Shown piece after piece: positions 19,114-64,000 of a stretch of DNA of 64,000 nt. Position 1 is the stretch's first letter; each line of letters opens with the position of its first letter. The position numbers and the translations under genes were made by a program. The notes below the pieces were generated by a model. The model was not told the DNA's origin, made no database searches, and saw only the letters and a program-made list of their open reading frames with translations. The stretch is taken from the NCBI RefSeq assembly GCF_988243305.1, contig NZ_OZ547136.1. The stretch is one strand, 5' to 3'.

Positions 19114-19238
19114 ATCTTAATATTTGATTATCCTTTGCGCGGCATGATGTCGCGCTTTTTTTATCTGTCGTTTAGTTACAACATACTAATGTGTAAGTGG
19201 CTTATTTCGCCGGATTTCATTAAGAGCCATTAATATGT

Positions 19239-19268
19239 TACCCATGGGGAATACTCCTTAATACCCAT
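19239..19268 (+). promoter_or_regulatory. cluster of NarL heptamer-like sites (TACCCAT, TACTCCT, TACCCAT) upstream of narG
   Basis: Three TACYYMT-type heptamers about 240-270 bp upstream of the narG start, where the upstream NarL-binding region of narG is known to lie. Confidence 0.55.
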
Positions 19269-19411
19269 CTGCATAAAAATCTTAATAGTTTAAATAACTA
19301 CAGGTATAAAACGTCTTAATTTACAGTCTGTTATGTTGTGGCTGTTAATTATCCTAAAGGGGTATCTTAGGAATTTACTTTATTTTTCATCCCCATCACT
19401 CTTGATCGTTA

Positions 19412-57935: not shown

Positions 57936-58610
57936 TCAGTCTAAGTATTGATGTATTTGTGAAACTTTACCTTTAATGGTGTAACCACCATTAAGTTCGA
58001 TGGGTTTGTAAAGCGGATTCAGTGACAACAGATAGATGTTTGGTCCGTCAATCGCAACTTTTTTTAGTGTTACGTTTGGCGTTCCTTCCAATTGGATTAA
58101 GATTATTTTTCCCACCAGTTCTCTAATGTTACTTGAGCATGGTGTGATCAGCACGGTAGATCCGTCGGGGATGGTTGGGAGGCCGTTAGAGTTTGTCATC
58201 GCATCTCCCTCAACATGCAATAAAAAAGAGTTTTCAGCGGTTTTTGTCATGACATCAACCCAATTCTTAATACCAGGAATCTCGGTTACTGGACAACTCA
58301 TATCCCAATAACCAGCCTGTTCCCACGTTAAAACGGGCAACCGGGCGATGTTGTCACTAATGTAAGGGTACTGATTCAGACGCAGATCATCGGCTTTATC
58401 GTGACCGTCCTTTCCATAAAGAATCCATTCAGGAGATTTGGAAAGCAATTTTGACAGTAGATACAAATTCTCACCGTCAGGTTTTGAAGAGCCATTTTCC
58501 CATTTTGTTACGGATACACGAGATATGCCGATTGCTTTCGCAACCTGCTGTTGGGTTAATCCAACGTCTTTTCGACGATTCCGAATACGTTCGCTGATAG
58601 TGTTTTTCAT
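57936..58610 (-). CDS. prophage CI-like repressor (XRE HTH N-terminal domain plus S24/LexA-like autopeptidase C-terminal domain)
   Basis: Track ORF 57936-58709; start placed at ATG 58610 (MKNTISERIRNRRKDVGLTQQQVAKAIGISRVSVTKWENG...) by close resemblance to the P22 C2 N-terminus; C-terminal Ser/Lys dyad context (GDAM...KK). Confidence 0.85.
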   Translation of the reverse strand: MKNTISERIRNRRKDVGLTQQQVAKAIGISRVSVTKWENGSSKPDGENLYLLSKLLSKSPEWILYGKDGHDKADDLRLNQYPYISDNIARLPVLTWEQAGYWDMSCPVTEIPGIKNWVDVMTKTAENSFLLHVEGDAMTNSNGLPTIPDGSTVLITPCSSNIRELVGKIILIQLEGTPNVTLKKVAIDGPNIYLLSLNPLYKPIELNGGYTIKGKVSQIHQYLD

Positions 58611-58624
58611 GTAACCAATGTTAC
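58611..58624. promoter_or_regulatory. candidate right operator site (PRM-proximal)
   Basis: Palindrome GTAACCAATGTTAC immediately upstream of the repressor start. Confidence 0.55.
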
Positions 58625-58658
58625 TACCAAGTGATGTTGCTATGGTTGACATTGTTAT

Positions 58659-58672
58659 GTAACTATTGTTAC
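58659..58672. promoter_or_regulatory. candidate right operator site (PR-proximal)
   Basis: Palindrome GTAACTATTGTTAC adjacent to a TTGACA hexamer (58646-58651) upstream of the cro-like gene. Confidence 0.55.
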
Positions 58673-58701
58673 CCTTCTGCTCGAAATAACAGGAGAGTTT
58701 T

Positions 58702-58917
58702 ATGTTCAAAGATGATGTTCTGCGCTATTTCAAAAAAAAGCGACTAGTAGCTGAGGCTCTTGGAATTTCACATGTGGCTGTTGTGCGGTGGAAAGCAGTT
58801 ATTCCCAAACTTCGCGCAATGGAACTGGATGAAATTACTAACGGTGAATTGAAATACAACCCAGAACTTTACAAGAAGCAGGATAGCACCTCAAACGAAG
58901 GAAAGAATGATTCATGA
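58702..58917 (+). CDS. Cro-like/YdaS-family HTH DNA-binding protein
   Basis: 71-aa ORF with SD AGGAGAG; HTH segment LVAEALGISHVAVVRW; divergent from the repressor gene. Confidence 0.7.
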   Translation: MFKDDVLRYFKKKRLVAEALGISHVAVVRWKAVIPKLRAMELDEITNGELKYNPELYKKQDSTSNEGKNDS

Positions 58918-59339
58918 AAATCAAGCATGAACACATCCGCATGGCGATGAATGTCTGGGCGCATCCGGACGGCGAAAAAGTGCCGGCTGCGAAAATTACC
59001 AAAGCGTATTTCGAGCTGGGAATGACGTTCCCGGAACTGTATGACGACAGCCATCCGGAAGCCCTGGCCCGTAATACCCAGAAAATTTTCCGTTGGCTGG
59101 ATAAAGACACCCCTGATGCTGTTGAAAAAATGCAGGCTCTGTTACCGGCGATCGAAAAGGCGATGCCGCCTTTGCTGGTGGCCCGTATGCGCAGCCACAG
59201 TTCTGAATATTACCGTGAGATCGTCGAACGGAGGGATCGGCTGGTGAAGGATGTCGATGATTTTGTTGCGTCAGCGGTTGTTTTGTATGACCAGATGAAT
59301 CGCGGCGGCCCGGCAGGGAATGCTGTGGTGATGCACTAA
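58914..59339 (+). CDS. CII-like/YdaT-family prophage regulator
   Basis: 141-aa ORF overlapping the cro-like stop; size and position match the YdaT family that follows ydaS in Rac-type prophages. Confidence 0.55.
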   Translation: MKIKHEHIRMAMNVWAHPDGEKVPAAKITKAYFELGMTFPELYDDSHPEALARNTQKIFRWLDKDTPDAVEKMQALLPAIEKAMPPLLVARMRSHSSEYYREIVERRDRLVKDVDDFVASAVVLYDQMNRGGPAGNAVVMH

Positions 59340-59361
59340 AAGCACGGTGTTCGGGGGTTTT

Positions 59362-60324
59362 ATGAGCAGCAAGCTTCATGGTCTTGTCTGGGAAGGGTGC
59401 GCCTTCACCGGCATGATCTTATCCAGGGTGGCGGTTATGGCCCGTCTTGCAGACTACAGCAATGACGAGGGCGTGTCATGGCCTGCCATTGAAACTATCC
59501 GGCGTCAGATCGGTGCAAGAAGTGAATCCACAGTGAAATCGGCTATTGCAGAACTGGCGAAAGAGGGCTGGCTGACGAAGGAAGAGCGTAAGGTCGGTGG
59601 GCGTAATGTAAGCAATATCTATCGGCTTAATGTGGAAAAACTCGAAGCAGCTGCGGCGGCGGCGCGTGAGTCATATAAACCGAAAAGAAAAATTAGCCCG
59701 GCAAAAAATGACCCGTTAACAGTTGACCCGTCAAATATTGACCCCTCAACGGTTGACCCGTCAAATTTTGATGGATCAACTGTTGATAAAAAACTGCCGA
59801 TTAGGGGGGCGATGATTGACCCCGATCCGTCAGTATTAAAACCTGATCCGTCAGATAAAAGATCTTCTTGTCCGGACGCTTCGCAACCGGACCCGCAGAC
59901 GGCTGAACAGGATTTTTTAACCCGACACCCTGACGCGGTTGTGTTCAGTGCGAAAAAACGCCAGTGGGGAAGTCAGGAAGATTTGGTGTGCGCACAGTGG
60001 ATCTGGGGACGAATCGTGAGTCTTTACGAGCAGGCGGCCAGCTATGATGGCGAGATCACTAGACCGAAAGAACCCAACTGGACAGCATGGGCCAATGACG
60101 TTCGCACAATGCGGATGCTGGATGGCAGAACTCACAGACAAATTTGTGAAATGTTTGGGCGTCTCCAGCGGGATTCGTTCTGGGTAAAAAACATCATGAG
60201 TCCGGCAAAACTCCGGGAAAAATGGGATGAACTGGTTATCCGCCTGGGGCGTTCGCCTGCGCAGCGTTGCGTGAATCACATTTCTGAACCGGACACTGAA
60301 ATTCCGCCGGGCTTCAGGGGGTAA
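59362..60324 (+). CDS. phage replication initiator (lambda O-like, HTH N-terminal domain) containing internal iteron-like repeats
   Basis: Track ORF from GTG 59347; ATG 59362 has a GGGGG SD; N-terminal winged-helix segment (LSRVAVMARLADYSNDEGVSWPAIETIRRQIG); central DPS-rich linker encoded by repeated TTGACCCGTCAA units. Confidence 0.6.
   Translation: MSSKLHGLVWEGCAFTGMILSRVAVMARLADYSNDEGVSWPAIETIRRQIGARSESTVKSAIAELAKEGWLTKEERKVGGRNVSNIYRLNVEKLEAAAAAARESYKPKRKISPAKNDPLTVDPSNIDPSTVDPSNFDGSTVDKKLPIRGAMIDPDPSVLKPDPSDKRSSCPDASQPDPQTAEQDFLTRHPDAVVFSAKKRQWGSQEDLVCAQWIWGRIVSLYEQAASYDGEITRPKEPNWTAWANDVRTMRMLDGRTHRQICEMFGRLQRDSFWVKNIMSPAKLREKWDELVIRLGRSPAQRCVNHISEPDTEIPPGFRG
59708..59790. repeat. iteron-like direct repeats (candidate phage replication origin) inside the replication gene
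   Basis: About five copies of a 12-15 bp unit (TTGACCCGTCAAAT and variants, each an internal dyad TTGAC/GTCAA) followed by an A-rich stretch GATAAAAAACTG. Confidence 0.6.
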
Positions 60325-60364
60325 GTGTTAATTTCTGGTCATGAGGTAATTTTCAGGAGGACTT

Positions 60365-60640
60365 GTGGCAAAAGTTTTTACACAAGAAGAGCGGGAAAAA
60401 ATTAAAGGGCTGATCGTGGAATTCGTACGCCTTAACGGACGAGGCACGATTCGGCAGTTATCGGATGAAATTGGTGTCAGTCATACGTCTGTCGGTCGTT
60501 TATGCATGGAGCTGGCCGCCAGTGGTGATGTTTACAATTCCGGTTACGGAGTATTCCCGTCTGAGCAGGCGCGCAAGGACTGGCAAAACGCCCGCAAAAA
60601 AACTCTCAAGGGCAAAGCTGAAGAAACCATCTGTGGTTGA
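60365..60640 (+). CDS. hypothetical small protein with predicted winged-helix/HTH segment
   Basis: 91-aa ORF from GTG with SD CAGGAGGAC; HTH-like GTIRQLSDEIGVSHTSVGRLCMELAASG. Confidence 0.5.
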   Translation: MAKVFTQEEREKIKGLIVEFVRLNGRGTIRQLSDEIGVSHTSVGRLCMELAASGDVYNSGYGVFPSEQARKDWQNARKKTLKGKAEETICG

Positions 60641-60788
60641 TCCGGACCTTATCTGGCTATTACCTGACGGAGAAATACGTCGCTACGACAGGCGTCAGAA
60701 CATAATCTGTCGCGAGTGCCGGAAGAGCGAAGTTATGCAGCGCGTACTGGCGTTTTATCAGGGGAATTTTCAGGAGGTAGCGCAGTGA
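60633..60788 (+). CDS. hypothetical micro-protein (51 aa), translationally coupled
   Basis: GTG at 60633 overlaps the upstream stop (GTGGTTGA); its stop overlaps the next start (GTGA); part of track ORF 60465-60788. Confidence 0.35.
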   Translation: MVDPDLIWLLPDGEIRRYDRRQNIICRECRKSEVMQRVLAFYQGNFQEVAQ

Positions 60789-61273
60789 GTGCACCGGCAA
60801 CCATTCTTGATATGTGCTGTGGCAGCCGTATGTTCTGGTTCGATAAGAATGACGACCGGGCGATATTTAGCGATATCAGAAAAGAAGAGCACACATTGTG
60901 TGATGGACGACGCCTGATTATCAGTCCTGACCTGATAGCAGATTTTCGAGCATTACCATTTGCAGACGCATCGTTTCCGGTTGTTGTATTCGACCCTCCG
61001 CATCTTGAGTGTGTTGGTGATAAAGCCTGGATGGGAAAGAAATATGGACGGTTGAATAAAGATACCTGGCGTGATGATTTGCGGCAGGGATTTAAAGAAG
61101 CTTTTCGTGTGTTGTGGCCACATGGCGTTCTGATTTTTAAATGGAATGAAACGCAAATATCTGTCCGCCAGATATTGGCACTAACCGACGCGAAACCAAT
61201 CATCAGCCAGCGCACCGGTAAGAACGATAAAACACATTGGATTATTTTTGTGAAGGAGGCGACCAGTGGGTAA
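60785..61273 (+). CDS. putative SAM-dependent (DNA) methyltransferase, orphan
   Basis: Track ORF 60716-61273; GTG at 60785 preceded by SD CAGGAGG; motif I-like ILDMCCGSRMF and motif IV-like FDPPHL; no adjacent restriction endonuclease gene. Confidence 0.5.
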   Translation: MSAPATILDMCCGSRMFWFDKNDDRAIFSDIRKEEHTLCDGRRLIISPDLIADFRALPFADASFPVVVFDPPHLECVGDKAWMGKKYGRLNKDTWRDDLRQGFKEAFRVLWPHGVLIFKWNETQISVRQILALTDAKPIISQRTGKNDKTHWIIFVKEATSG

Positions 61274-61520
61274 ATCAAAATGCCAGGTTTATGGCAACAA
61301 GATAGAACCGTGTACGACCCTGGCAAAATCCCTTGAGCATGATGCTGAATACACGATGCGAAAAGGTCTGCTGATATACAAAATCTGGAATGAGAGTTTA
61401 ACTCGCGGTCCTGATTTTGTGATGTTGCGTTCCGGTGAATTTTCTAAATTACCAGTTCGGGTTTCATTTTGTCCGTTCTGTGGTGAAAGTCTGAAAACGT
61501 GGGAGAACAGAAATGAATGA
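61266..61520 (+). CDS. hypothetical zinc-ribbon protein
   Basis: 84-aa ORF with Cys pairs C6/C16 and CPFC near the C-terminus; overlaps neighbours by 8 nt on each side. Confidence 0.45.
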   Translation: MGKSKCQVYGNKIEPCTTLAKSLEHDAEYTMRKGLLIYKIWNESLTRGPDFVMLRSGEFSKLPVRVSFCPFCGESLKTWENRNE

Positions 61521-61824
61521 AATTAAAGAAATACCAGTAGTACGTGATGAATATGGCTACTGGACGCATCCTGAATATGAAAAATTCTGTGACGGTCGGG
61601 AATATATTTCAACGGAAGAGTTTAACGCCTGGATGGAGGAAAATAATCTTCAATACGTCCTCTGCTTCAGAGATGAAGGATGTGCTGACCTTGATGCGTG
61701 TGATGCTGATATTTCTGCATGGGAACCGGAACGACCAGAGGGCAATGGATGGTTTATTGGTTCAATACATGACACCGAAGATGGCCCGGTTTGTGTATGG
61801 CTGAGAAATAAGGCCGAAGCATAA
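61513..61824 (+). CDS. hypothetical acidic phage protein
   Basis: 103-aa ORF, D/E-rich (DEGCADLDACDADISAWEPERPEG). Confidence 0.45.
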   Translation: MNEIKEIPVVRDEYGYWTHPEYEKFCDGREYISTEEFNAWMEENNLQYVLCFRDEGCADLDACDADISAWEPERPEGNGWFIGSIHDTEDGPVCVWLRNKAEA

Positions 61825-61952
61825 AGGCTATAAACCGACTAACAACTAAATACTGAAGATTTAAATCAGAAACGATTTTTATTAAATCCTTAACCGGAGG
61901 GATTCCTGCACCCTCAGAACATCAGGAGGCCGTCCGAAAGGGCGGTAGTGAA

Positions 61953-62135
61953 ATGCGAAAATTCAAAATAATTATTGAAACGGGAATAGCCGGTGGAGAT
62001 TTCGAGGATGAATTCGAAGTGGATGATGATGCAACACCAGATGAAATACAGGATGAAGCTAAAGATATTTTCTTTAACTACTGCAATTACTCATACCACG
62101 AAATAAAAGACGAAGAGGAAGAACAAAATGGCTGA
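61953..62135 (+). CDS. hypothetical very acidic small protein (60 aa)
   Basis: About one third of residues are D/E (FEDEFEVDDDATPDEIQDEAKD...KDEEEEQNG). Confidence 0.45.
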   Translation: MRKFKIIIETGIAGGDFEDEFEVDDDATPDEIQDEAKDIFFNYCNYSYHEIKDEEEEQNG

Positions 62136-62304
62136 TTTTGGTTCAACTAAATATAACGCCAGTTTTGAAGAATGGCATGAACTGTTAATGGATTATGCAG
62201 AGTTACGCGGTGGAAGTGCCGCTGATGCTGAAGCATGGCGTGATGATTATGAAGCAGGGAAAACACCGGTCGAAGCATATTGTGATGAGTGGGGCGATGA
62301 ATGA
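62128..62304 (+). CDS. hypothetical acidic small protein (58 aa)
   Basis: ATG 62128 overlaps upstream stop (ATGGCTGA); MADFGSTKYNASFEEWHELLMDYAELRGGSAADAEAWRDDYEAGKTPVEAYCDEWGDE; below track size cutoff. Confidence 0.4.
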   Translation: MADFGSTKYNASFEEWHELLMDYAELRGGSAADAEAWRDDYEAGKTPVEAYCDEWGDE

Positions 62305-62660
62305 GCGAGATTAATTATCAGGAAGGGCATGAAAAGGTAGGGCAGGCAAAACCAGTGGCATGGCGATATCGCTACGTGAAAAAAGGCGTTACAGACTTTC
62401 AGGGGAAGCAGTGGGTTGGTGACTGGAAATATGTCCCGACAAAAGAGGATTGTAACGACAGACCAAACTATGAAATTCAGGCGTTATTCACGGCCCCGCC
62501 AGCTTCGGTGACATCAGAAGGACTGGTTAAAGCTGTGCGCTTTTATGAACAGGTACGGCGTGAGGATCCGCCAGTTGAAACCGGAGCATGGAAAGACGCT
62601 ATTGACTGGGTACTCAAGGAGGCCTGCCTGGTTGTAAACACGGGCATCAAAGGAGGCTGA
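62301..62660 (+). CDS. hypothetical phage protein
   Basis: 119-aa ORF, start overlaps upstream stop (ATGA). Confidence 0.45.
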   Translation: MSEINYQEGHEKVGQAKPVAWRYRYVKKGVTDFQGKQWVGDWKYVPTKEDCNDRPNYEIQALFTAPPASVTSEGLVKAVRFYEQVRREDPPVETGAWKDAIDWVLKEACLVVNTGIKGG

Positions 62661-62876
62661 ATGGGTATTGCCGCAAGTTATACCATGCATCTCTATTGTG
62701 ATTGCCGCCAGTGTACGGATGGCAAATATCAGTCGCCAGATTTTGGTGAGTATATCGGTACGTCATGGGCTGGCTGTGCAAAAGAGGCACGTAAAGATGG
62801 GTGGCGAATAAGTGCCGACAAAACGCGTGCTTTTGCGCCAAGGCATAAAATTTTGAGGAGCAACAAAGGAGAGTGA
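62661..62876 (+). CDS. hypothetical Cys-rich small protein
   Basis: 71-aa ORF with CDCRQC motif, immediately after the previous stop. Confidence 0.4.
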   Translation: MGIAASYTMHLYCDCRQCTDGKYQSPDFGEYIGTSWAGCAKEARKDGWRISADKTRAFAPRHKILRSNKGE

Positions 62877-62877
62877 T

Positions 62878-63096
62878 GTGCCTACATTATTCAGAAAAGA
62901 ATATCCGCGAAAAAGTAGAGCGACAGAATTTTTGTTTCTCATTCTGTTTATCGTGTTGATGATACCGATATCCCCGTTAATTCTGGTATGGGGAATCGGA
63001 AAAATAATTGAGCCAGTTATTGAATTGTATAACGACGTGGTATGGGCTCCGTTCAACACACTGCACAATAAAATTAATCCGTATAAGGAAAACTGA
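62878..63096 (+). CDS. hypothetical small membrane protein
   Basis: 72-aa ORF with one strongly hydrophobic segment (FLFLILFIVLMIPISPLILVWGIG). Confidence 0.4.
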   Translation: MPTLFRKEYPRKSRATEFLFLILFIVLMIPISPLILVWGIGKIIEPVIELYNDVVWAPFNTLHNKINPYKEN

Positions 63097-63097
63097 T

Positions 63098-63361
63098 ATG
63101 GCAACTTTGACAAAAAAAGAACAGGCATGGTTGAACGAATTACAGGACGTTCTTGATCGCTGTCCATCACCGAAAAAAATTGGTTTTTACACCATTGGCG
63201 ATAAAAGCATTTACCTGTATGACCTGCGCCGCATGGATGAAATCATGGAGGCTCTTGATAATCGTTCGTCAATGGATTGGTGTGTTGCTGTCCATGATAT
63301 GAATGCAGGGTTTGATGAAAAGATTTTGTTCCCCTCATCAGTTGAAAGCACTGCGGGTTAA
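63098..63361 (+). CDS. hypothetical phage protein
   Basis: 87-aa ORF from ATG 63098 (MATLTKKEQAWLNELQDV...) within track ORF 63008-63361. Confidence 0.4.
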   Translation: MATLTKKEQAWLNELQDVLDRCPSPKKIGFYTIGDKSIYLYDLRRMDEIMEALDNRSSMDWCVAVHDMNAGFDEKILFPSSVESTAG

Positions 63362-63371
63362 GGAGTAACAC

Positions 63372-64000
63372 ATGACCACTATTACCAAAGAACGTATTGA
63401 ATTGTTCATTAAAAACCCGCTTGAAAACGGGCTTACCCGTGGTGAACAAATGGAACTGGCACGGATTGCGCTGGCATCGCTGGAAGCAGATCCAGTTAAA
63501 CGAGTTAACTCAGATCAGATGCGCCGAGTCTGCTTAGAAGCTAATCGCCATTTAGATAAATATGACGCGATGGCGAAAGAGGTAAATAAGTTGCTTGGAC
63601 GCATCGCCCCGCCAGCGCCGGTAGTGCCGGAAGAAGCAACTCCGGAAAACGTAGAAATGCTCTCTGGCTATGTTTCCACGTACAAATTAACCGATAGCGA
63701 GCGCGATATTGCTGCCGAAATATGGAACGCCTGCCGCACCGCCATGCTTCAGTCCGGAAACTTTCGGGAAAGCAAGAATTCGTCAACCAATAATTTTCGG
63801 GAAATCCCGGAAGCGTCAACCAGCTCTCCGGTAACTCCGGCTCTTCTGCCTGGTGGTTTCACCATTGAGGAGGCGAAGGAATTACATGAAGACCTGGTAC
63901 GCAGCCACATAAGCAAGGCCTTAAGTGGCGAAAAGATGAAAAAGAAAGATCGCGATGCTGATTTGCGCTGGATTCATGGCGTTATAGTTCAGGCAGCGTG
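63372..64000 (+). CDS. hypothetical phage protein, partial (runs off window end)
   Basis: ATG 63372 with SD AAGGAG; open frame MTTITKERIELFIKNPLENGLTRGEQMELARIALASLEADPV... without stop to 64000. Confidence 0.5.
   Translation, partial: MTTITKERIELFIKNPLENGLTRGEQMELARIALASLEADPVKRVNSDQMRRVCLEANRHLDKYDAMAKEVNKLLGRIAPPAPVVPEEATPENVEMLSGYVSTYKLTDSERDIAAEIWNACRTAMLQSGNFRESKNSSTNNFREIPEASTSSPVTPALLPGGFTIEEAKELHEDLVRSHISKALSGEKMKKKDRDADLRWIHGVIVQAA

Follow-up and report, generated by a model that had tools for sequence, protein, structure and literature searches.

A PHROG 926 protein with a predicted zinc site and a DUF4014 membrane protein encoded side by side in the early region of a Qin-like Escherichia coli prophage

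Results

Gene arrangement and start signals

The stretch of DNA analysed, henceforth referred to as the window, comprises 64,000 nucleotides of contig NZ_OZ547136.1 (assembly GCF_988243305.1), and all positions given below refer to it. Two small genes follow one another on the + strand near its end. The first, ORF A (62661-62876, + strand), begins with ATG and encodes a 71-aa member of PHROG 926 that starts MGIAASYTMHLYCDCRQCTDGKYQ and is identical to RefSeq protein WP_000510387.1. The second, ORF B (62878-63096, + strand), begins with GTG and encodes a 72-aa protein that starts MPTLFRKEYPRKSRATEFLFLILFIVLMIPISPLILVWGIGK, is identical to RefSeq protein WP_001142588.1 and belongs to the DUF4014 family (PF13198; PHROG 1832) of predicted bitopic membrane proteins. 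Both genes had been picked out in an initial annotation made from the sequence alone, as a Cys-rich 71-aa ORF containing CDCRQC and a 72-aa ORF with one strongly hydrophobic helix, and both descriptions were confirmed at these positions. The spacing given there, a 2-nt gap, was corrected to 1 nt, with the stop codon of ORF A occupying 62874-62876 and the GTG of ORF B starting at 62878.

The ATG of ORF A directly adjoins the TGA of an upstream 119-aa ORF (62301-62660, + strand; phrog_660), the counterpart of which in the E. coli 042 RefSeq annotation is WP_001289989.1. A Shine-Dalgarno sequence for ORF A, AAGGAGG (62650-62656, + strand), is located within the 3' end of that upstream ORF, an arrangement of translational coupling. 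The corresponding site for ORF B, AAAGGAGAG (62865-62873, + strand), is located within the 3' end of ORF A. A possible alternative start of ORF B, an ATG at 62876 in another frame, was rejected: it opens a frame of only 27 codons, and the GTG frame fits the DUF4014 model from model position 2. Downstream, an 87-aa ORF (63098-63361, + strand; phrog_1714) starts 1 nt past the stop codon of ORF B. Its first codons form a junction, CTGATATGGCAACTTTG, that is shared with phages D6 and 933W and beyond which the sequences diverge, and which reads as a typical module boundary.

Coding status of both ORFs

Chance ORFs about 70 codons long are common. Both genes were identified as full-length members of catalogued protein families, although the initial annotation had stated that nothing in the sequence identifies them. 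ORF A was matched over its full length by the family HMM phrog_926 (E 4.6e-35, positions 1-69 of 69), and ORF B by the family HMM phrog_1832 (E 2.9e-45, full length) and by the Pfam HMM PF13198 with 89.7 bits against a cut-off of 23.2 bits (model positions 2-72 of 72). The identical RefSeq proteins, named "hypothetical protein" for ORF A and "DUF4014 family protein" for ORF B, occur in E. coli 042, EC931 and other strains.

Substitution rates were estimated by the Nei-Gojobori method. The resulting dN/dS values were 0.12-0.25 for ORF A compared with diverged homologues in 933W, RCS47 and PhiR57_1, and 0.16-0.33 for ORF B compared with diverged homologues in 933W, HK225 and D6. Synonymous sites were saturated in the comparisons of ORF B with epsilon15, ES18 and g341c, yet its length and motifs were kept there. 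Values of 0.12-0.33 show purifying selection on both ORFs, and both are conserved.

An antisense 135-aa ORF overlapping ORF B (62763-63170, - strand) was evaluated as an alternative gene and judged to be a chance ORF. Its frame is closed in epsilon15, ES18, HK225 and g341c and open in close relatives only, and it carries no RefSeq annotation. No RNA family was found by an Rfam scan of positions 58000-64000.

One or both frames could in principle have arisen by chance, a reading that draws on their length of only 71-72 codons and, for ORF B, on the GTG start, the low GC content (0.37) and the long overlapping antisense ORF. Against it stand the dN/dS values of both ORFs, the constant length of ORF B homologues down to 51% identity, the at least 470 clusters matched by the ORF A profile, the Shine-Dalgarno site before each ORF and the lack of conservation of the antisense frame. 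The chance-frame reading is effectively refuted. Because of the full-length HMM matches, the dN/dS values, the identical RefSeq proteins and the non-conserved antisense competitor, ORFs A and B are real genes.

Prophage and operon context

The host element is a Qin-like, lambdoid E. coli prophage located next to ompW. Its close relatives are inserted next to that gene and contain int, xis, a recE-like exonuclease gene, dicB, ydfB and ydfC, then a LexA-type repressor gene, cro, a ydaT-like gene and replication genes, and further on hokD, rusA, the Q antiterminator gene, tRNAs, holin and lysozyme genes. In the window, a CI-like repressor gene (57936-58709, - strand) is followed by cro (58702-58917, + strand), a ydaT-like gene and a replication gene (59347-60324) with HTH_36/DnaD_N domains. 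The replication gene is followed by ten small + strand ORFs that are separated by tiny gaps or overlap and continue up to the end of the window. ORF A is the seventh of these ten and ORF B the eighth, about 4 kb downstream of cro, with gaps of 0-1 nt to the neighbouring genes.

Promoter-like and terminator-like sites were found at chance frequency. A consensus scan, of a kind that could miss weak promoters, returned 8 promoter-like sites where 8.0 were expected and 6 terminator-like sites where 5.9 were expected, and none of either type brackets ORF A or ORF B. Since the genes are tightly packed past cro and these signals do not exceed chance, ORFs A and B are read as parts of the rightward early transcript, which would be silent in the repressed prophage. 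A weak internal promoter may nevertheless express ORF B in the lysogen.

Family and anatomy of the ORF A protein

The ORF A protein, read as soluble, contains Cys at positions 13, 15, 18 and 39 and His at positions 10 and 62, has a net charge of +4 and contains no hydrophobic segment. At 90% identity its close relatives fall into 43 clusters, drawn from Escherichia, Salmonella, Shigella, Pantoea and Kosakonia, in which Y12, C13, D14, C15, C18, G47 and W48 are invariant. A further stretch, ARKDGWRIS-D--R-(F/Y)AP-HK, is nearly invariant. C39 is not conserved. A profile built from the family, searched against 1.84 billion representative sequences, matched at least 470 clusters (50% identity) at E<=1e-3, nearly all of them stand-alone proteins of 60-80 aa. 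The consensus of 78 diverse members is MIxxGYxLxLYCDCxxC...ExxG....C.R.ARxxGWxI......C..P.H, with C13 and G47 invariant and Y7, Y12, A43, W48 and P60 near-invariant, and all 78 match phrog_926. Recognised PHROG 926 members such as 933W L0068 (NP_049468.1), Vi01_032 and RCS47 p0093 share with ORF A the signature MIxxGYxLxLYCD ... ARxxGW ... P-x-H/C.

Distant relatives (about 35-46% identity) were identified in 283 phage records. Most of these are virulent Ackermannviridae such as Vi01, CBA120 and Klebsiella phage Magnus; the remainder are Klebsiella siphophages and one Drexlerviridae phage. The family spans virulent Ackermannviridae, Drexlerviridae, P1-like and lambdoid phages, and its genes are always placed among strings of small early genes. 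The neighbours vary by phage, and no conserved neighbour was found in the annotated phage records or in two metagenomic contigs. Occasional variants are present in the family: in P0164 the protein is duplicated in tandem, and in P0196 it is fused to a Lar-like ribbon. In many Ackermannviridae genomes the gene has been left unannotated.

Domain searches with other collections were negative. Pfam, NCBIfam and PADLOC gave no match to ORF A or its flanking ORFs, and Pfam and NCBIfam gave nothing credible for the 78 diverse relatives, PHROG 926 being without a model in those collections. An AF2 model calculated from the family's own alignment (pLDDT 80.6) predicts a beta-beta-alpha core, with strands at residues 7-13 and 28-33, a helix at 36-45 and two short C-terminal strands. 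A test for likeness in fold to known zinc ribbons, treble clefs or knuckles was negative.

Several small phage proteins resemble ORF A in general terms. Rac YdaE, lambda Ea8.5, which has a hybrid homeodomain/zinc-finger fold, and the Lar family are likewise small, Cys/His-rich and encoded among ea-type genes. Homology to Rac YdaE (hhalign probability 0.3%) and to lambda Ea8.5 (hhalign probability 0.4%) was rejected, and the Lar-like ribbon of the ORF A relative P0196 is a fusion partner rather than a sign of homology. The only hit of a PDB profile search with the ORF A family, a marginal one to a ZF-HD homeodomain (E 0.013), covered just the ARxxGWRI helix and was judged to be chance or convergent.

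Predicted metal site of the ORF A protein

The CDCRQC motif of ORF A (residues 13-18, C13-D-C15-R-Q-C18; codons at 62697-62714, + strand) is predicted to form the N-terminal part of a metal site, and H62 in the APRHK segment (codon at 62844-62846, + strand) is its predicted fourth ligand. In the diverse alignment C13 is invariant, C18 is present in 66/78 members, and position 62 is His in 48/78 and Cys in 27/78. Members that lack both C39 and C57 still have C13, C15, C18 and H62.

The third ligand position showed a distinctive pattern. Cys15 and Cys59 are close to mutually exclusive among the 78 members, with Cys15 only in 42, Cys59 only in 33, both in 3 and neither in 0 (table [[3,42],[33,0]]; Fisher p 6.5e-19, a value uncorrected for phylogeny). 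This pattern looks like a ligand exchange in which the third ligand has migrated between two positions. Within PHROG 926, ORF A falls in the branch carrying CDCxxC and AP-x-H, where Cys15 would be the ligand, and the other branch has C-x-C-P-x-C, where Cys59 would take its place. A complete four-ligand set was counted in 63/78 aligned members. In the remaining 15/78 one canonical position out of the four is missing from the alignment, and in these the site may be built differently or the alignment may be imperfect.

Because of the Cys/His conservation and the Cys15/Cys59 exchange pattern, a single tetrahedral site is proposed, with zinc as the most likely metal. The ORF A protein probably binds one zinc through C13, C15, C18 and H62.

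Family and anatomy of the ORF B protein

ORF B encodes one strongly hydrophobic helix, predicted to cross the membrane (residues 17-41; 62926-63000, + strand) and containing a conserved P30-I-S-P33 kink; it was delimited by hydropathy, the AF2 model and invariant residues. The Kyte-Doolittle maximum over a 19-residue window is 3.01, at residues 19-37. The AF2 model (pLDDT 79) contains helices at residues 14-28 and 32-66, broken at the prolines. The 16 N-terminal residues, with a basic K-x-YPR-x-SR segment, carry a net charge of +4 and the 30 C-terminal residues a net charge of -2. Topology prediction, proposed as a check in the initial annotation, gave a single helix in an N-in/C-out orientation by the positive-inside rule only, and the conserved tail would accordingly be periplasmic.

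DUF4014 homologues form 147 clusters from Escherichia, Salmonella, Shigella and their phages, and nearly all are 72 aa long. Invariant residues down to 51% identity are K7, F24, L27, P30, G41, E45, Y51, F59, H63, N64, K65, N67, P68 and E71. Several of these fall in the C-terminal motif LHNKINPYKE (residues 62-71; 63061-63090, + strand), part of a tail, PF--LHNK-x-NPY-K/R-E, that is better conserved than any other polar part of the protein. The named members 933W L0067 (NP_049467.1), epsilon15 gp46 (NP_848254.1), ES18 gp39 and HK225 gp56 are equal in length to ORF B, have the same transmembrane helix and LHNK-NPY tail, and show no material difference. They also share with it an early-operon position among ea, Ead, EaA and DUF551 genes. 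Placement within the early region differs, on the cro/replication side for ORF B in the window and on the int/xis side for the DUF4014 genes of 933W, ES18 and g341c.

That a bitopic peptide keeps such a polar tail conserved points to a particular partner more than to unspecific damage of the membrane. This bears directly on the proposal that ORF B is a membrane-damaging peptide for host killing or lysis timing (holin-, Hok- or Kil-like), with ORF A unrelated. A small protein with one strongly hydrophobic helix would suit such a role, and prophages of this type carry the small toxic peptide genes hokD and dicB. The lysis cassette is distant, however, with a class II holin and lysozyme about 10 kb downstream in related prophages; Pfam revealed no homology to Hok or holin families; and the best conservation is found in the polar tail, which fits a specific partner better. 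We regard a killing or lysis role as highly improbable.

Origin of the product names of ORF B homologues

Homologues of ORF B carry product names that imply a function. In RefSeq, those of 933W, Min27, HK225, g341c and epsilon15 are named "released from the phage upon host infection", while a "(sugar) acetyltransferase inhibitor" name is attached to those of ArgO145, MG40 and to some E. coli proteins. The g341c gp23 record quotes NP_848254.1 in a note as "acetyltransferase inhibitor protein epsilon15p46", whereas the present name of NP_848254.1 is "released from the phage upon host infection" and the primary epsilon15 record describes gp46 as hypothetical. Since NP_848254.1 has borne each name in turn, both legacy names descend from one epsilon15 record and are not evidence of function.

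A literature search returned no paper mentioning DUF4014, PF13198, the PHROG 926 family or the accessions, and no experimental paper on inhibition of acetylation by epsilon15 gp46. A review describes the proposed inhibitors as "not investigated to date".

The name nevertheless corresponds to a definite proposal, that ORF B inhibits a host O-antigen acetyltransferase of the AT3 type, as was once written for epsilon15 gp46. ORF B is 51.4% identical to gp46 over 72 aa (E 6e-12), epsilon15 abolishes O-acetylation, the name persists in the g341c note and in the derived names of ArgO145, MG40 and E. coli proteins, and a single-pass peptide could plausibly block a polytopic membrane enzyme. The label is, however, a legacy guess that the primary record does not contain and that RefSeq has replaced by an equally unsupported one. 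Members also occur in Stx phages, HK225, ES18 and the P1-like phage D6, some hosts of which are not known to have a WbaK-type O-acetylation target. In addition, the gene is placed in an early lytic operon, away from the conversion genes expressed in lysogens. Inhibition of an O-antigen acetyltransferase is consequently considered very unlikely.

Distribution of ORFs A and B

The two genes were treated in the initial annotation as a pair, a view that their distribution contradicts. Across 5,426 complete E. coli genomes, megablast detected ORF A in 620 genomes at 705 places and ORF B in 1,011 genomes at 1,720 places, with up to 6 copies per genome. Plasmids account for 123 of the 705 ORF A places, and these are probably P1-like phage-plasmids. 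At least one of the two genes was present in 1,201/5,426 genomes, and the adjacent arrangement (the 436-bp block, >=80% covered) in 351/5,426.

Each gene is also found alone in individual phages. ORF A occurs without ORF B in the P1-like RCS47 and in PhiR57_1, where it is followed by an EaA/DUF551-type gene. The Ackermannviridae likewise appear to have ORF A without ORF B, as suggested by the lack of any Ackermannviridae record among the ORF B tblastn matches. Conversely, ORF B occurs without ORF A in epsilon15 (gp46), ES18 (gp39), HK225 (gp56) and g341c (gp23), in which the gene ahead of it is Ead-like, an HNH gene or another small gene. In the P1-like phage D6, ORF B is present with a 71-aa ORF (orf102) immediately upstream. 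The complete block is shared with Stx phages at about 93% DNA identity (L0068 and L0067 in 933W), where it belongs to the leftward operon, at the int side of the early region.

With ORF A in 620 genomes, ORF B in 1,011, the two adjacent in only 351 and each found alone elsewhere, they are not a two-gene module. ORFs A and B form no functional pair, and their adjacency is the product of mosaic shuffling of ea/nin-type genes.

Superinfection exclusion and abortive infection

The initial annotation had pointed to superinfection exclusion or abortive infection, that is, to ORF B, alone or with ORF A, protecting the lysogen. ORF B is indeed a small protein predicted to be bitopic, and the known exclusion proteins HK97 gp15, T4 Imm, P22 SieA and lambda/Rac SieB are likewise small and located in the inner membrane. 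The ORF B family is frequent in E. coli prophages (1,011/5,426 genomes, up to 6 copies). Early lytic expression would be compatible with exclusion, T4 Imm and Sp being early genes too. ORF B has, however, no sequence relationship to HK97 gp15, T4 Imm, P22 SieA or SieB, and it is probably not an independently transcribed moron.

Several further results weaken the proposal. PADLOC returned no match at E<=0.1 for ORF A, ORF B or both flanking ORFs, and no defence family of Pfam or NCBIfam was matched. The genes are embedded, with gaps of 0-1 nt, in the cro-side early operon, and because promoter and terminator signals there do not rise above chance, expression from a repressed prophage is not expected. 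ORFs A and B form no conserved pair, and relatives of ORF A are also present in strictly virulent phages. Protection of the lysogen by ORF B, with or without ORF A, is therefore judged unlikely.

Discussion

We propose that the locus holds two real small genes that act independently. With regard to the structural and contextual statements taken as a whole, we are reasonably confident; any specific target is held with much less confidence. Zinc binding by ORF A, the topology of ORF B, the timing of their expression and any target of either protein are features that we infer.

Both genes belong to a freely shuffled "ea/nin-type" block in the rightward, cro-side early operon. The product of ORF A would be a basic alpha/beta mini-domain of some 70 aa in the cytoplasm, most likely stabilised by a single zinc ion, and could act during early lytic growth as a small module that binds nucleic acid or a protein of host or phage. 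ORF B would encode an inner-membrane peptide with a cytoplasmic N-terminus and a proline-kinked helix running into the LHNK-x-NPY-K/R-E tail helix, and may engage a host inner-membrane or periplasmic protein through helix and tail during lytic development.

A more specific reading of both families is doubtful but can be stated. PHROG 926, found in lambdoid and P1-like temperate phages as well as in Vi01-like and T1-like virulent ones, might be a very widespread zinc-dependent early factor with one shared host target, acting for example in anti-defence or host takeover. DUF4014 might be an inhibitor of a host inner-membrane enzyme, and as a small-peptide inhibitor it may revive the "acetyltransferase inhibitor" idea for epsilon15. 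Support for the shared-target and enzyme-inhibitor readings is limited to conservation and anatomy.

Both ORFs encode ordinary members of families that are already on record. As it stands, the finding carries little weight, as both proteins are catalogued and no system is involved. This analysis adds the prediction of a zinc site with a Cys15/Cys59 exchange, the finding that PHROG 926 extends over different phage lifestyles and lacks a Pfam model, the demonstration that the two genes are not a unit, and the origin of the misleading product names. Those legacy names propagate through RefSeq and PHROGs and should not be taken as function. Given its size, its presence across lifestyles and the Cys15/Cys59 exchange, the ORF A family could reasonably be put forward as a new domain family. 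Roughly one in five complete E. coli genomes carries DUF4014, frequently in several copies, so that a phenotype, should one be found for it, would be of wide relevance that extends to Stx phages.

Annotation of the ORF A and ORF B families

Clear homologues of ORF A (62661-62876, +), the predicted zinc-binding mini-protein of 71 aa, were identified at ~44% identity (E ~1e-8) in unannotated stretches of many Ackermannviridae records. In CBA120 (JN593240), for example, the homologue lies at 19177-19374 with no gene annotated, as is likewise the case in many Kuttervirus genomes, and this type of gene appears to have been systematically overlooked in the annotation of Ackermannviridae. The 933W homologue, NP_049468.1 (3429-3716 of the 933W record), is annotated in RefSeq as a 288-nt gene compared to 216 nt in the window, and the excess length is a 5' extension. 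The conserved N-terminus of the family, M-[AI]-I-A-A-S-Y, favours the shorter start and suggests that it is the true one. Two variant architectures were also observed: a single 134-aa protein (P0164) in which the ORF A domain is duplicated in tandem, and a protein coupling the domain to a C-terminal Lar-like ribbon, CxxC...CPxC...WN (P0196).

The functional names carried by the family of ORF B (62878-63096, +), the DUF4014 single-pass membrane protein, trace to one record. NP_848254.1 (epsilon15 gp46) was called first "acetyltransferase inhibitor" and later "released from the phage upon host infection", both putative designations. Names derived from this entry now stand on 933W, Min27, HK225, g341c, MG40 and ArgO145, and have also reached the PHROG 1832 label and some E. 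coli proteins.

Flanking modules and the junction at the end of ORF B

Upstream of ORF A, a 185-aa ORF (60716-61273) with weak, sub-threshold matches to SAM-methyltransferases (Methyltransf_11/25) overlaps an 84-aa ORF (61266-61520) that ends in a CPFCG motif. A DUF977 gene occupies this position in the related prophage of E. coli EC931; the difference is therefore a local module replacement. At the far end, an ORF starting at 63373 remains open past the end of the window (63373-64000), and its position in related genomes is held by DUF551-type genes, some annotated as partial or as pseudogenes.

In orf103 of the P1-like phage D6 (2501-2956 of its record) and in one metagenomic protein (P0148), the DUF4014 ORF continues in frame into the "MATLTK..." ORF that follows it. 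The fusion arises because the A-run ahead of the stop is shorter by one A, reading GGAAAC in the fused versions versus GGAAAAC in the window (63087-63100); it may be genuine, or may reflect slippage or a sequencing error in the homopolymer. The junction itself, CTGATATGGCAACTTTG (63094-63115), comprises the ORF B stop and the opening codons of the next ORF. It is common to the window, D6 and 933W, while the downstream ORFs differ immediately past it; CTGATATGGCAACTTTG looks like a recombination boundary separating mosaic modules.
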